Assembly: GCA_001778235.1 (NCBI GenBank) | Contig: MFGJ01000007.1 | Location: 264,331-328,330 of the forward strand | Length of the DNA: 64,000 bases | Direction: 5' to 3' | Source of the DNA: Candidatus Falkowbacteria bacterium RIFOXYC2_FULL_36_12 | GTDB taxonomy: Bacteria > Patescibacteriota > Patescibacteriia > UBA11705 | Shown: in pieces, positions 4,350 to 63,725 of the stretch | Position numbering within the stretch: position 1 is the stretch's first letter | How the letters are laid out: each line of letters begins with the position of its first letter | Position numbers and translations under genes: made by a program | The notes under the pieces: model-generated | What the model saw: only the letters and a program-made list of their open reading frames with translations | Databases searched by the model: none | Told to the model about the DNA's origin: nothing

Positions 4350-4439
4350 AATATGTGCTTTACTCCAAAGTTTAAATACTTTTATAAAAATGATGTTAAA
4401 CTAAAATAAATATTTGTGTCGGGAAATATAAAGTGATTG

Positions 4440-4930
4440 TTATCCACAGAATTTTGTTGTAGTATTTTTGGTTAGTAAAATTATTGTTTCAGCAAAGCTG
4501 TTACTTTTTGACATCCTGCCTACCCTGCCTACCCTGCCTACCGGCAGGCAGGTGGCAGGCAGGCCCCGAGGCTTACCGTGTTCGTGGGGTTGTTGTATTG
4601 CTAAAGTAAGTTTTTTGAGATTGTGTGATTCTTTCGCTTTGCGAGCTACTTTTGACACCAAAAGTAGCCAAAAGTGCTGGGGGGATTCAATGCGAATTGC
4701 ATTGTTCATCCCTAGTGCATTGATTACCCGCAGAATCCCCCCAGACCCCTATGCTTGGCATATTTGTGGGATTTGATATTAAAGTTAGTGATTGGTTTTG
4801 CTAAAGCACGCCCCAGACCTGCCTTCATCAAGATTACGGCAGGCAAGCCCCGAGGAATATCATTCTTGATATTTTTGGATTTGGAGATTTGGCATAAGTG
4901 AATGGGCACAAGTTTTTTAAAAAACAAAAA
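4440..4930. repeat. about 500-bp non-coding region dense in perfect hairpins and dispersed-repeat copies
   Basis: (cctaccctg)x3 followed by ggcaggcagg. A 10-bp stem gctacttttg/caaaagtagc. A 10-bp stem ggggggattc/gaatcccccc enclosing aatgc-gaatt-gcatt. A 41-bp family-A element at 4811-4851. The track ORFs here are low-complexity and repeat-encoded. Confidence 0.6.
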
Positions 4931-4950
4931 ACTGAGAAATATTATCCCAG

Positions 4951-10986: not shown

Positions 10987-10989
10987 ATA

Positions 10990-11062
10990 TTAAGCGAGAT
11001 AAGCGAGAACAGCGAGGTCAGCGAGTAAAGCGAGTACAGCGAGGTCAGCGAGTAAAGTAATA
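10990..11062. repeat. 9-bp tandem array (NNNAGCGAG, 8 units)
   Basis: Units taagcgag ataagcgag aacagcgag gtcagcgag taaagcgag tacagcgag gtcagcgag. The array begins about 4 nt upstream of the 10986 start codon. Confidence 0.85.
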
Positions 11063-11117
11063 CTTTCTTCTGAACTTGCTGTCTTCGGTACTTGCTGTCT
11101 TCTGTTCTGGCTATTTA

Positions 11118-33514: not shown

Positions 33515-33520
33515 TATTAA

Positions 33521-33552
33521 TATAAAAAAGGAACCTTCAAAGGTTTCTTTTT
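33521..33552 (+). terminator. intrinsic terminator after topA
   Basis: ggaaccttcaaaggtttc hairpin followed by tttttt. Confidence 0.5.
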
Positions 33553-33861
33553 TAGTGCAGGAGTCAGGATTTTAACCCCGATTAAAGTTGATGATAGGGT
33601 ATCACTGAACCCCTGCAATTATAATTATAACTAATATTGTTGGTTAAACAAAATTTATTGCCCTTTTTTCAAAAAAACAAAAAGTCCTCGGAACAATCCA
33701 AGAACTTTTCGTAGATCGGGATATCCCCTATCATCAACATCAATATAATAGCAAAGTTTAGATGATTTGTCAAGACTTAAAGCTGAAATGGCGTTGCCTT
33801 GATAAAAACTGGATTTTTTGTCATAATACAATATAATATAAATATAAAGATAAAAGAGGAT

Positions 33862-42311: not shown

Positions 42312-42530
42312 AAATTTGAATGACTTGTTTATAATTTATTCTGTTATAATTATACATAAAGATGCAACTTTTGACAATATTGATTTTTTGTATTATAATC
42401 CAATTGTTTTTAGCGTAATTTAGAGAATTGTCGATGATGCCGAGGTGACTGATTACTCTTCATCAAAACAAGCGGAGGTTTGGCTGTAGATTGAATTACT
42501 ATTGCTATACCTTATTTACAATTGATTTAA

Positions 42531-42722
42531 GCCGAAGTGCCCGCCTACGCAGGTGGCTACGGCGGACAGGGCGGTAATTAGTAGAGAGATTTAACTTTCT
42601 ACCAGTTCCGCCACATTTACAATCATGCCGAAGTGCCCGCCTACGCAGGTGGCTACGGCGGACAGGGCGGTAATTAGTAGGGAGATTTAACTTTCTACCA
42701 GTTCCGCCACATTTACAATCAT
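42531..42722 (+). repeat. two 96-bp tandem direct repeats derived from the 5' part of the adjacent tRNA-Leu
   Basis: Each unit starts with gccgaagtg, which equals tRNA-Leu nt 1-9. Each unit contains ctaccagttccgccac, the reverse complement of tRNA-Leu nt 7-21, and ends acatttacaatcat. The units differ by 1 nt (gtagag vs gtaggg). The third unit is the tRNA itself. Confidence 0.85.
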
Positions 42723-42809
42723 GCCGAAGTGGCGGAACTGGTAGACGCGCTGGACTCAAAATCCAGTGGTGGCAACATCGTGAGAGTTCGAGTCTCTCCT
42801 TCGGCACCA
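42723..42809 (+). tRNA. tRNA-Leu (anticodon CAA), CCA encoded
   Basis: Hand fold: acceptor GCCGAAG/CTTCGGC. Anticodon stem CTGGA/TCCAG with loop CTCAAAA. Long variable arm. T-arm GAGAG-TTCGAGT-CTCTC. Discriminator A followed by CCA. Confidence 0.85.
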
Positions 42810-45818: not shown

Positions 45819-46304
45819 TTATTTAAAAGCAAGAACGCCTATGTAGGTTAAGACAGAAACAATTATTCCAGCAATTAAGGTGCCCAATGAGATTAACAAA
45901 ACTGACCGCATACGATCAATGCCAAAAAGAAAGGCGGCAACTGAACCGGTCCATACGCCAGTAATGGGCAATGGAATGGCAACAAAAATAACTAAGGCAA
46001 TTTCACCATACTTCAGATACTTACCCTCAAATTTTCTGCGAGTTCGGGCAAAGAGCCAAGTGAAAAACTTTAAGCCTAATTTAAATTTCATCAGTTGTTT
46101 TGAGACAATATCGATGAGGTAAACCAAGACTAGCGTAATAAAAATACTGCCTAAAACAGACCAGAAAAACGCTTGTAAAATTGGTAAATTAAACCAACCT
46201 ACAGCAATAGGGATTGAGGCTCTAAGTTCAGTAACAGGGATTAGGGCTAAAAGAAAAGTTGCTAATTCAGCTGGTAAATTTTTTACTAATTCTAGAAAAA
46301 ACAT
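45819..46304 (-). CDS. small multi-TM protein (small multidrug-export-like, COG2426-type)
   Basis: 161 aa with 4 TM helices. The ELRASIPIAVGW motif is characteristic of that family. Confidence 0.4.
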   Translation of the reverse strand: MFFLELVKNLPAELATFLLALIPVTELRASIPIAVGWFNLPILQAFFWSVLGSIFITLVLVYLIDIVSKQLMKFKLGLKFFTWLFARTRRKFEGKYLKYGEIALVIFVAIPLPITGVWTGSVAAFLFGIDRMRSVLLISLGTLIAGIIVSVLTYIGVLAFK

Positions 46305-46321
46305 AAGTTTTGATTAATTAA

Positions 46322-46350
46322 TTCTTGACGAATTGTTTTTGATATGATAA
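46322..46350 (+). promoter_or_regulatory. sigma-70-type promoter (TTGACG-17-TAATAT)
   Basis: Read directly from the sequence. It drives the hairpin RNA below. Confidence 0.5.
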
Positions 46351-46356
46351 TATATT

Positions 46357-46462
46357 TTTGTTGAAAGTTCAATGGTAGGTTTCCTGGTGGCTGGCGGTAT
46401 GAGGAATCCCCCCCAGGAGTGCAGTAGTCAACGATGATCTACTGCCAGCCACCTTTTTTTCA
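46357..46462 (+). ncRNA. about 100-nt candidate sRNA: a long hairpin with a terminator
   Basis: ggtggctggc...gccagccacc is a perfect 10-bp stem enclosing a C-rich internal loop (aatcccccccaggagtgcagtag), followed by ttttttt. The region is GC-rich relative to its AT-rich surroundings. Confidence 0.3.
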
Positions 46463-46487
46463 ACAAACTAATTTATGTTATAATACT

Positions 46488-46791
46488 GAAGTTCCCAGAC
46501 GGTGGCCAACGGCCATGCTACCTGATGGGACGACTGCCCTCTAGCGTTCTGGCCAAATTGCTAAAGGGCGACCATCCCCCCATTCCCGTTGTCCTGGGTG
46601 CGCTGACTGAAGATCTTCCCCTGCTTTCAGGAAGAGGCTGAAGTAGCGTAGCCCCTTAACCTTAACCTGCCACCAGAAAGCTAGCTCTGTGTAGTGTGAG
46701 CTCCACTCCAGAGCGAATCAACCGAGCTCAAACCGCCGGATGCCTAAACGCACCTGGCTGCCCATCGCGATTCACGATCGTGATGGGCATT
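46488..46791 (+). ncRNA. about 300-nt GC-rich structured RNA candidate, unidentified
   Basis: Preceded by a -10 tataat at about 46476. It ends with hairpin gcccatcgcgat-tcac-gatcgtgatgggc followed by ttttt at about 46786. There is no ORF. The GC content is far above the genome background. It matches none of the RNase P, tmRNA or SRP consensus blocks I checked by eye. Confidence 0.35.
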
Positions 46792-46806
46792 TTTTATTAT
46801 AGACAA

Positions 46807-47715
46807 TTATTTTTCCCATTGATAATTATTAAAAACCCAATCAGCCAAAACCTTGGTATCTTGAAATCGAGAATCAATTGTATTACTATTTAATACTACA
46901 AAAATAACTGGCTTATTTTCATGAGTAATCTCAACAGCCAAACAATAACCAGCTTCTGGCAGATAACCGGTTTTACCACCAATTAATTCATAACCATAGA
47001 TCTGACTATTTAAAAAACTGTCAATAAGAATATCTGTGCTGGTAATCTGACGGTTATTTTTTTTATTTAAAATATCAATTTCATATTTTGGCTGAATTAC
47101 TGTTTCCCGAATTTGGTTTTTCTGCAAAGCAAGATAAATTAATCTAGCAATATCTGAAGCGGTTGAAACATTGCCAGCTGAAAGACCGGTAGGATCGCTA
47201 AAATCAGTATTGTACAAACCTAATTCTTCGGCTTTATAATTCATCAGTTCAGTAAATTCCAAATTGGATAAACCAAGAGCTCGAACCAGGGCCATAATTG
47301 AATTATTATCCGAACTGATCAGAGCTGATTTCCACAAATCAATAAACTTCACCTGTTCTCCACGATAAATATGCGGATAAGCTCCGACTGTTTCATCAGA
47401 GGACATGAGTGTCACTTGTTTTTGCCAATCTGGATTTAAATCCAAAATAACCAAAGCAGTCATAATCTTTGTTATGCTGGCAATTGGTTGTTCCTCATTT
47501 GCATGTCTGCCGGCTAGGACTTTACCACTAGCAACATCGACGACTAAATATTTATTGGCAGTAATCTCTACACCAATGTTTTCAGGATTAATTCTCGCGG
47601 GCGTTGATACGACTGATTGATTTTCGGCAAGTGAAAGAAACTCTGTATTTTCTACAGAGTAAACATTATTTACAGAATGAATTAAGAGTAAACTAAGGAT
47701 TATATTGAGAAACAT
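46807..47715 (-). CDS. dacA: D-alanyl-D-alanine carboxypeptidase (S11, PBP5-like)
   Basis: Signal peptide, then SITK (SxxK), SDN and KTG motifs. Confidence 0.8.
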   Translation of the reverse strand: MFLNIILSLLLIHSVNNVYSVENTEFLSLAENQSVVSTPARINPENIGVEITANKYLVVDVASGKVLAGRHANEEQPIASITKIMTALVILDLNPDWQKQVTLMSSDETVGAYPHIYRGEQVKFIDLWKSALISSDNNSIMALVRALGLSNLEFTELMNYKAEELGLYNTDFSDPTGLSAGNVSTASDIARLIYLALQKNQIRETVIQPKYEIDILNKKNNRQITSTDILIDSFLNSQIYGYELIGGKTGYLPEAGYCLAVEITHENKPVIFVVLNSNTIDSRFQDTKVLADWVFNNYQWEK

Positions 47716-47835
47716 AGAGGTAACATGGGTTAAAATGGTTAAATGGGATGTTTGAGCTTGAAGGGATTATCAAGAATTATTACTTATATTCAGGTCTTAT
47801 TTTCCCTTAAAATATGCACAATATCTCACCACCTC

Positions 47836-47864
47836 TTGACAACAAATGGCACATGTGATATAAT
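47836..47864 (+). promoter_or_regulatory. consensus sigma-70 promoter TTGACA-17-TATAAT
   Basis: TTGACA at 47836-47841, a 17-nt spacer, and TATAAT at 47859-47864. Confidence 0.6.
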
Positions 47865-47870
47865 GTAATA

Positions 47871-48072
47871 GTTAAATGAGTTTTCTTTGGGTTCGCCCAG
47901 AGAAAAGGGTTCGAAGCTAGGTCCGACTAATTCGGATAGGGAGAGTAATCTCCTAAAGATCCTAGTGGAGGCGTCCCTGACCGCAAGGTCAAAAAACAGC
48001 AGAGGCACGGTAAACAACCCGTGTCACTACCCCCAGAACGTGTTCGCATGTTCTGGGGGTCTTATTTTTTTA
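47871..48072 (+). ncRNA. about 200-nt structured ncRNA candidate (6S- or SRP-like size), unidentified
   Basis: Hairpins cuuuggg-UUCG-cccagag, uccga-cuaau-ucgga, ggag-aguaau-cucc and gacc-GCAA-gguc. Terminator cccccagaacgtgttcgcatgttctggggg followed by ttattttttt. No ORF. Confidence 0.45.
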
Positions 48073-63458: not shown

Positions 63459-63604
63459 CCCCAGACCTGCCTTCATCAAGATTACGGCAGGCAAGCCCCA
63501 GAGATGTTCATGTTCGATGGTTTAAATATATAGACTTGGTGGTGGTGTTGACGGCAAGAAAGCCCCCAGACCTGCCTTCATCAAGATTACGGCAGGCAAG
63601 CCCC
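63459..63604. repeat. two copies of the 41-bp dispersed element ccccagacctgccttcatcaagattacggcaggcaagcccc
   Basis: Copies at 63459-63499 and 63564-63604. A third identical copy is at 4811-4851. Internal inverted repeat cctgcc/ggcagg. Confidence 0.85.
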
Positions 63605-63725
63605 GATGCTATAAAACTTACTTCCGTGGAAAATGAATCGCAGGCGATTAAATTATTTAGAGATGTGAAGGCTATGGCTTGCAAAATTAAAACCACCAGC
63701 ATTTATGCTGATGGTTTTAATTTGA

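Follow-up and report, generated by a model that had tools for sequence, protein, structure and literature searches.

A putative composite non-coding RNA locus inserted antisense in a gene cluster of a Falkowbacteria genome

A 502-nt GC-rich spacer of Candidatus Falkowbacteria bacterium RIFOXYC2_FULL_36_12 may hold one orphan, lineage-specific composite non-coding RNA locus, read from the plus strand and inserted antisense in an operon; we put the prospects of this reading at about even. The spacer lies in a 64,000-nucleotide stretch of DNA that was analysed as a whole (the window). A plus-strand non-coding RNA running from promoter to terminator, as an earlier interpretation of the letters alone (the sequence-only reading) had proposed, is still the best reading because the U-tracts are strand-specific, the stems contain G·U pairs, there is no open reading frame and the island is GC-rich within an AT-rich, compact genome. 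In kind it would be an unconserved stand-alone bacterial small RNA locus, familiar in type but in a poorly studied phylum.

CPR/Patescibacteria have tiny, gene-dense genomes and no axenic culture. To our knowledge almost nothing is known about their regulatory RNA, and a search of the literature on Falkowbacteria sRNAs found nothing. If they are transcribed, the island and a neighbour at 47716-48061 would indicate that tiny CPR genomes are still gaining non-coding RNA genes that split an ancestral operon. The analysis also removes a false lead, the island units not being missing housekeeping RNAs, joins two candidates into one module and provides exact coordinates for mapping Rifle groundwater metatranscriptomes.

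Location and composition of the island

The island fills the spacer (positions 46305-46806) that separates two minus-strand genes. On its left lies the gene for a membrane protein of the small multidrug-export family (Sm_multidrug_ex, PF06695; 45819-46304), and on its right dacA, which encodes a Peptidase_S11 D-Ala-D-Ala carboxypeptidase (46807-47715). The sequence-only reading had placed the island between membrane-protein genes, a description that fits the left neighbour and not the right one; it was correct that both putative units lie on the strand opposite the flanking genes. These genes belong to a Falkowbacteria cluster with the order scpA-scpB-dacA-Sm_multidrug_ex-GT4 that is otherwise tightly packed, and an identical Sm_multidrug_ex protein occurs in Candidatus Falkowbacteria bacterium RIFOXYA2_FULL_35_8. 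With a GC content of 56-57% against 36% in the window, the island is the top GC island of the 64 kb. Neither an ORF of more than 38 aa nor a long stop-free frame was found within it. The only ORFs, of 21, 36 and 38 aa, have no Shine-Dalgarno sequence and no transmembrane-like stretch, and a type I toxin-antitoxin system was rejected on this basis.

No minus-strand terminator was found within the island, between dacA and Sm_multidrug_ex, and transcription of the ancestral operon probably continues across it, so that an operon transcript would be perfectly complementary to the island RNAs. A promoter-like site on the minus strand (46372-46344), back to back with the plus-strand site P1 described below and some 40 nt before the Sm_multidrug_ex start, could serve that gene. 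After the insertions, Sm_multidrug_ex and dacA have no recognisable Shine-Dalgarno sequence before their start codons. Their counterparts in relatives lie against or overlap the gene upstream, and a loss of translational coupling here is suggested.

Transcription signals and folding of the two units

The promoter and the second -10 element named in the sequence-only reading are both present. P1 (46325-46353, plus strand) reads TTGACG-17-TAATAT with a TG before the -10 element and matches the consensus at 9 of 12 positions; P2 (46457-46484, plus strand) reads TTTTCA-16-TG-TATAAT, matches at 10 of 12 with the TG, and sits in an AT-rich linker. Scores of 9-10/12 are commonplace in this AT-rich window, whose two strands contain 54 promoter-like sites with at least 10 matches.

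The short unit, RNA1, spans about 100 nt of the plus strand (46360-46461), its ends being inferred from the positions of promoter and U-tract. The 10-bp perfect stem reported earlier (ggtggctggc/gccagccacc) is the core of a longer closing stem of 14 bp with one G·U pair (46386-46399/46440-46453). The unit further contains a C7 interior loop (46408-46414), an inner hairpin predicted at 46419-46446 and, directly after the closing stem, U7 (T7 in the DNA; 46454-46460). Against dinucleotide shuffles the RNA1 hairpin scored z = -2.8.

The long unit, RNA2, covers about 305 nt of ORF-less plus strand (46491-46795; 56-57% GC, 32% C) and ends in the clean intrinsic terminator that had been described for it (46759-46795). 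Its stem (46759-46789, -22.4 kcal/mol) has 13-14 bp with one G·U pair, is followed by U6, and forms the strongest terminator-like hairpin identified in the window. With the terminator included, RNA2 scored z = -4.0 against dinucleotide shuffles. Taken without the terminator, the RNA2 body folds hardly better than its shuffles: it gave z = -1.76 on the plus strand, where 9 of 200 shuffles folded equally well, and -1.21 on the minus strand, and it falls within the window background (mean -0.4, sd 1.4).

Reading the plus strand is justified because U-tracts follow the stems on this strand only, the terminator having none on the minus strand, and because the G·U pairs of the RNA1 stem and the terminator become C·A mismatches on the opposite strand. 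These same features weigh against a functional minus strand, that is, a structured 5′ UTR or intercistronic element such as a riboswitch that controls the exporter. Exporter genes of the size of Sm_multidrug_ex are often under riboswitch control, total folding energy is similar on the two strands, and the operon probably reads through the island. However, no riboswitch family matched either strand at E≤10, the minus-strand z of the RNA2 body is low, the pairing gain between the segments is only -12.2 kcal/mol on that strand, and relatives need no such leader; we consider a minus-strand element very improbable. A riboswitch or cis-leader for the island signals themselves was also rejected, since these run opposite to both neighbours.

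The plus-strand arrangement resembles sRNA genes with a sigma-70 promoter and an intrinsic terminator, among them orphan sRNAs and RsaE/RoxS of Firmicutes, in being an intergenic unit with -35 and -10 elements and a stem/U-tract 3′ end. Like stand-alone sRNA genes, the island carries, as consensus matches on a single strand of an intergenic region, a promoter and a Rho-independent terminator of its own. With the orphan and C-rich-loop sRNAs (RsaE/RoxS) it further shares the lack of an ORF, unpaired C-runs and a narrow lineage. It differs from RsaE/RoxS-type sRNAs in that there is no sequence or Rfam relation, the long part, at 305-435 nt, is above the typical size, and the host belongs to the CPR. 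The presence of a promoter-like site and a stem/U-tract in each unit would also suit two independent sRNA genes, each with its own targets, as would the rarity of C-rich loops: the plus strand of the window has five runs of at least six C, two of which are in the island. Set against this are the position of P2 in an AT-rich linker, a setting that readily yields such matches, and the way in which the two units fold together.

Complementarity between the two units

When the whole region was folded as one 438-nt molecule (46360-46797), it scored z = -6.45. Both the minimum-energy and the ensemble fold of this molecule drop the 14-bp hairpin of RNA1 for long-range helices, in which RNA1 (pairing span 46378-46457) pairs with RNA2 (partner span 46497-46682) in the same nested order. 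The predicted plus-strand helices comprise 15 bp (46378-46394 with 46666-46682), 8 bp (46396-46404 with 46654-46661), 7 bp (46412-46418, the end of the C-run, with 46592-46598) and 9 bp (46448-46457 with 46497-46506), and sampled pairs of the 15-bp and 9-bp helices have probabilities of about 1.

Pairing of separate molecules was measured as the co-fold gain relative to shuffles, which replaced full-length RNAduplex because the latter was uninformative. Co-folding RNA1 with RNA2 gained -20.3 kcal/mol over the separate folds, compared with -9.8 ± 3.1 when RNA1 was shuffled and -8.3 ± 3.1 when RNA2 was shuffled; in either case none of 80 shuffles reached the real gain. On the minus strand the gain was smaller (-12.2), and control co-folds of RNA1 or RNA2 with RNA3, a neighbouring unit described below, and cross-locus co-folds with units at 33.7 kb were not significant. 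As a thermodynamic prediction from a single sequence, these results indicate that RNA1 and RNA2 are specifically complementary, and the two separate RNAs of the sequence-only reading appear better handled as one module. Two independent sRNAs would not be expected to show mutual complementarity far above that of shuffles and of other local RNAs, nor a joined equilibrium fold in which the RNA1 hairpin gives way to RNA1-RNA2 helices, and we regard such a pair of genes as rather unlikely. In the single-transcript fold the P2 linker is a plain loop, and P2 may therefore not be real.

For a single composite locus, the reading that we prefer, transcription from P1 would run into the stem and U7, a probable stop for many transcripts, and give an RNA of about 100 nt, while read-through from P1 or a start at P2 would yield an RNA of 305-435 nt, with its 3′ end at the strong terminator. 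Three nested segments of the long part are the predicted pairing partners of the 5′ half of the short part, so that the product could be one large RNA with a long-range closing helix or a hybrid of short and long RNAs. During transcription the U7 hairpin would always precede the long-range helices, and a classical antiterminator is therefore not expected. The likeliest role would be regulation by base pairing: the RNAs might exert cis-antisense control or transcriptional interference on the dacA-Sm_multidrug_ex spacer, and exposed C-rich loops could act in trans. Cis-antisense or excludon-type systems are similar in that their units run against a co-directional cluster, are complementary to any read-through mRNA and have no terminator in between. 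In contrast, the island RNAs would overlap only the new spacer, with no coding sequence or native UTR, and read-through is presumed.

Comparison with known RNA families

The sequence-only reading had seen no convincing match to RNase P, tmRNA or SRP RNA and had offered divergent housekeeping RNAs as one interpretation; the former observation was reproduced, and the latter did not survive. At the gathering score, Rfam 15 identified only three tRNAs in the whole window. A search of 601 nt around the island (46250-46850) at E≤10, covering RNase P, tmRNA, SRP and 6S RNA, returned no plus-strand match, and at E≤1 the whole window gave nothing new and no match to these four. The leftovers at low threshold (Srn266, TCL6_2, rli40) are junk, on the minus strand or driven by the terminator. 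In parallel, ARAGORN, which covers permuted tmRNA, found no tmRNA and only the 3 tRNAs in the window.

Several families were also considered one by one. For tmRNA (RF00023 and permuted forms) there was no Rfam match, T-arm/T-loop, CCA end or tag ORF. SRP RNA (RF00169/RF01854) gave no match at E≤10, and its GNRA-capped domain IV hairpin, with conserved symmetric and asymmetric loops, is absent from the sequence. 6S RNA (RF00013, about 180 nt with an end-to-end closing stem, a large central bubble and a terminal stem) had no Rfam match, and the predicted folds of the island are multi-branched where this family has one interrupted hairpin. No covariance-model match to RNase P RNA (RF00010/RF00011) was obtained at E≤10 in the 601 nt or at E≤1 in the window. 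Since diverged RNase P RNAs of the CPR are known to score under the Rfam cut-offs (Lui et al. 2021, PMC8172020), this family was inspected by eye as well. The string GAGGAAUCC, at the GAGGAAUCCCCCCC site (46401), is loosely CR-I-like, and CAGAAAGCU, at the CAGAAAGCUAGCU site (46674), is loosely CR-V-like. The P4 helix was defined as pairing of CR-I (GAGGAAAGUCC...) with CR-V (ACAGAA...GGCUUA) around a bulged U; the UCCCCCC and AGCUAGC found downstream of the two strings are not complementary, and both segments pair with other partners in the predicted fold.

The island thus resembles RNase P RNA, including the CPR forms (PMC8172020), in its joined length, its long-range 5′-3′ closing helix, its GC-richness within an AT-rich genome and its short CR-I- and CR-V-like strings, but it differs in having no P4, no J11/12 or L15 features and no conservation in relatives. 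Two-piece tmRNA, tracrRNA:crRNA and sRNA:sponge pairs are joined by long stretches of base pairing, comparable with the two adjacent same-strand units here, whose nested complementarity exceeds 30 bp. Unlike a two-piece tmRNA, however, the island is negative in ARAGORN and has neither a tRNA-like domain nor a tag reading frame, and neither cas genes nor a CRISPR array lie next to it. Sizes of the right order (about 100 and 305 nt, or 435 nt joined) and two mutually pairing pieces would fit a housekeeping RNA in diverged form (RNase P, tmRNA, SRP or 6S), alone or in two pieces. Nevertheless, in addition to the negative family searches, the island has no SRP domain IV GNRA motif, T-arm or CCA end, and an essential RNA is unlikely to be missing from this locus in every syntenic relative, with no similarity in about 200 kb of related DNA. 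We therefore reject the housekeeping reading as extremely improbable; the locus is not RNase P, tmRNA, SRP or 6S RNA.

Copies, relatives and origin of the island

All 502 nt are 100% identical in 13 other groundwater assemblies from several samples, and the contig L024 holds 318 nt of the island, at the contig end. Two indels aside, the island-bearing contigs match the window at 99.9% identity or more and represent one clone-like population. Because the 14 identical copies come from one population, their identity is uninformative on selection. The sequence-only reading had counted the lack of both an Rfam match and a covariation-supported structure as a refutation; formally both are lacking, but copies without any variation offer nothing in which covariation could show.

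Related loci were collected through the carboxypeptidase (10 GTDB loci) and through homologues of Sm_multidrug_ex (7 loci, 63-94% identity). In 10 of 10 of the related loci, scpB, dacA and Sm_multidrug_ex (or the next gene) abut, overlap or lie no more than about 160 nt apart. In the two closest relatives 6-16 nt separate scpB from dacA, and where both dacA and Sm_multidrug_ex are present they are 2 nt apart, overlap or have only a MazG gene between them; one locus (L001) lacks Sm_multidrug_ex as well as the island. Flanking proteins are 55-73% identical in L025-L030, uniformly so against the two closest syntenic relatives, and less so in L001-L005; the consistency across the cluster indicates its vertical descent. 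Because the same genes are packed tightly in relatives, the 502-nt island and a 346-nt island in the scpB-dacA spacer (47716-48061) are lineage-specific insertions antisense to the operon.

Searches with nhmmer and blastn of about 200 kb of related Patescibacteria DNA found matches in same-species contigs only, and blastn set for distant similarity found nothing in phage and plasmid collections. Five scans of IMG/VR with 17-18-mers gave zero matches or chance matches that did not extend, as did two metagenome pattern scans (zero or chance matches) in a collection without the identical Rifle copies. An 820-aa six-frame peptide query made from both islands joined, aimed at spurious ORFs called on homologous RNA genes, had no match at E≤10 among 5.8 billion predicted proteins. 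There is no further copy of the island within the window, and its edges show no terminal repeats or target duplications, the ends not being inverted repeats. A MITE- or REP-type element was rejected for want of a second copy in the 64 kb and of terminal inverted repeats; other islands of the window do share repeats. A remnant of MazG was likewise dismissed, as the MazG gene at the L025 junction shows no similarity to the island, and a shared GGTGGCY..GGC motif was dropped as evidence because it had been chosen post hoc.

The main rival to the composite locus is a functionless insert, for example a foreign scar, whose AT-rich edge provides a new promoter for Sm_multidrug_ex and whose hairpins are incidental or insulate convergent transcription. 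Absence of the island from all relatives, the lack of a homologue in the collections searched and of a selection signal, the near-background fold of the RNA2 body and the minus-strand promoter-like site close to the Sm_multidrug_ex start are all as expected for such DNA. Yet a GC content of 56-57% has persisted in a gene-dense genome of 36% GC, the transcription signals all share one orientation, and the whole-region z of -6.45 comes with specific internal complementarity. Moreover, the edges lack terminal repeats and target duplications, and a second insertion nearby (47716-48061) has the best promoter of the window and an RNA with z of -7 to -10. We consider a functionless insert possible though doubtful, and count it in favour of the composite RNA locus that a dense genome has kept 502 non-coding bases.

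Other candidate loci in the window

A third plus-strand promoter-to-terminator unit, RNA3, occupies the scpB-dacA spacer (47716-48072, including the 346-nt island). It has the best promoter in the window, a perfect TTGACA-17-TG-TATAAT (47836-47864), and a 14-bp terminator hairpin (48029-48060). The RNA would be about 200 nt long with five perfect hairpins, whose loops include UUCG, CUAAU, GUAA and GCAA, and its z ranges from -7.25 to -10 on the plus strand against -2.9 on the minus strand. RNA3 had no Rfam match at E≤10, the unit is absent in all syntenic relatives, and 28 nt of its terminator are deleted in one assembly (L017). On structural grounds RNA3 appears to be a better non-coding RNA candidate than the 502-nt island.

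Two tandem small units lie on the minus strand at 33515-33798, between topA and an RSH (RelA/SpoT) gene and opposite to both. The first has a strong promoter (TTGACA-17-TG-TATTAT), about 60 nt and a strong 16-bp terminator (33712-33677); the second has TTAACC-18-TATAAT in an AT-rich linker, about 90 nt and a terminator of its own. They share a 13-nt perfect complement (GUUGAUGAUAGGG / CCCUAUCAUCAAC), their co-fold gain was -16.3 against about -5 for shuffles (0 of 80 reaching it), and the whole locus scored z = -6.84. By these predictions the locus follows the same two-part, mutually complementary grammar as the 502-nt island. With two candidates within 1.8 kb and a similar grammar at this third locus (33.5-33.8 kb), it is conceivable, but in our estimate improbable, that they are acquired, self-contained non-coding RNA cassettes placed antisense in conserved operons, some pairing a short terminated RNA with a longer one, and that they form an undescribed, possibly mobile class of regulatory or structured CPR RNA.

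Several repeats were observed elsewhere in the window. On the plus strand at 42531-42731, a 96-nt unit occurs in 2.1 copies (99% identical) immediately 5′ of tRNA-Leu(CAA); the one further 12/12 promoter of the window (42371-42399) lies upstream of them. Each unit opens with the first 9 nt of the tRNA and closes with tRNA nt 8-23 in reverse complement. In relatives this position holds a tRNA-like fragment (L025) and an ORF for a GIY-YIG endonuclease (L025, L027-L029), which suggests that the repeats are a decayed mobile or intron-like insertion.

An element of 41-43 nt occurs in three exact copies in non-coding regions (4811-4853, 63459-63499 and 63564-63606) with the hairpin CCCCAGACCTGCC-TTCATCAAGATTAC-GGCAGGCAAGCCCC, and looks like a REP-like dispersed repeat. 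The 600-nt gene-poor stretch at 4350-4950 contains several GC-rich hairpins, including (CCTGCCTAC)x3 with GGCAGGCAGGTGGCAGGCAGG (about 4516-4562) and CUGGGGGGAUUC...GAAUCCCCCCAG (4678-4745); its CTACCGGCAGGCAGG string is also found beside tRNA-Leu in the relative L025. Finally, two intergenic segments, 10987-11117 and 1235-1687, have in common a tandem repeat motif of about 9 nt, with exact matches of up to 24 nt.
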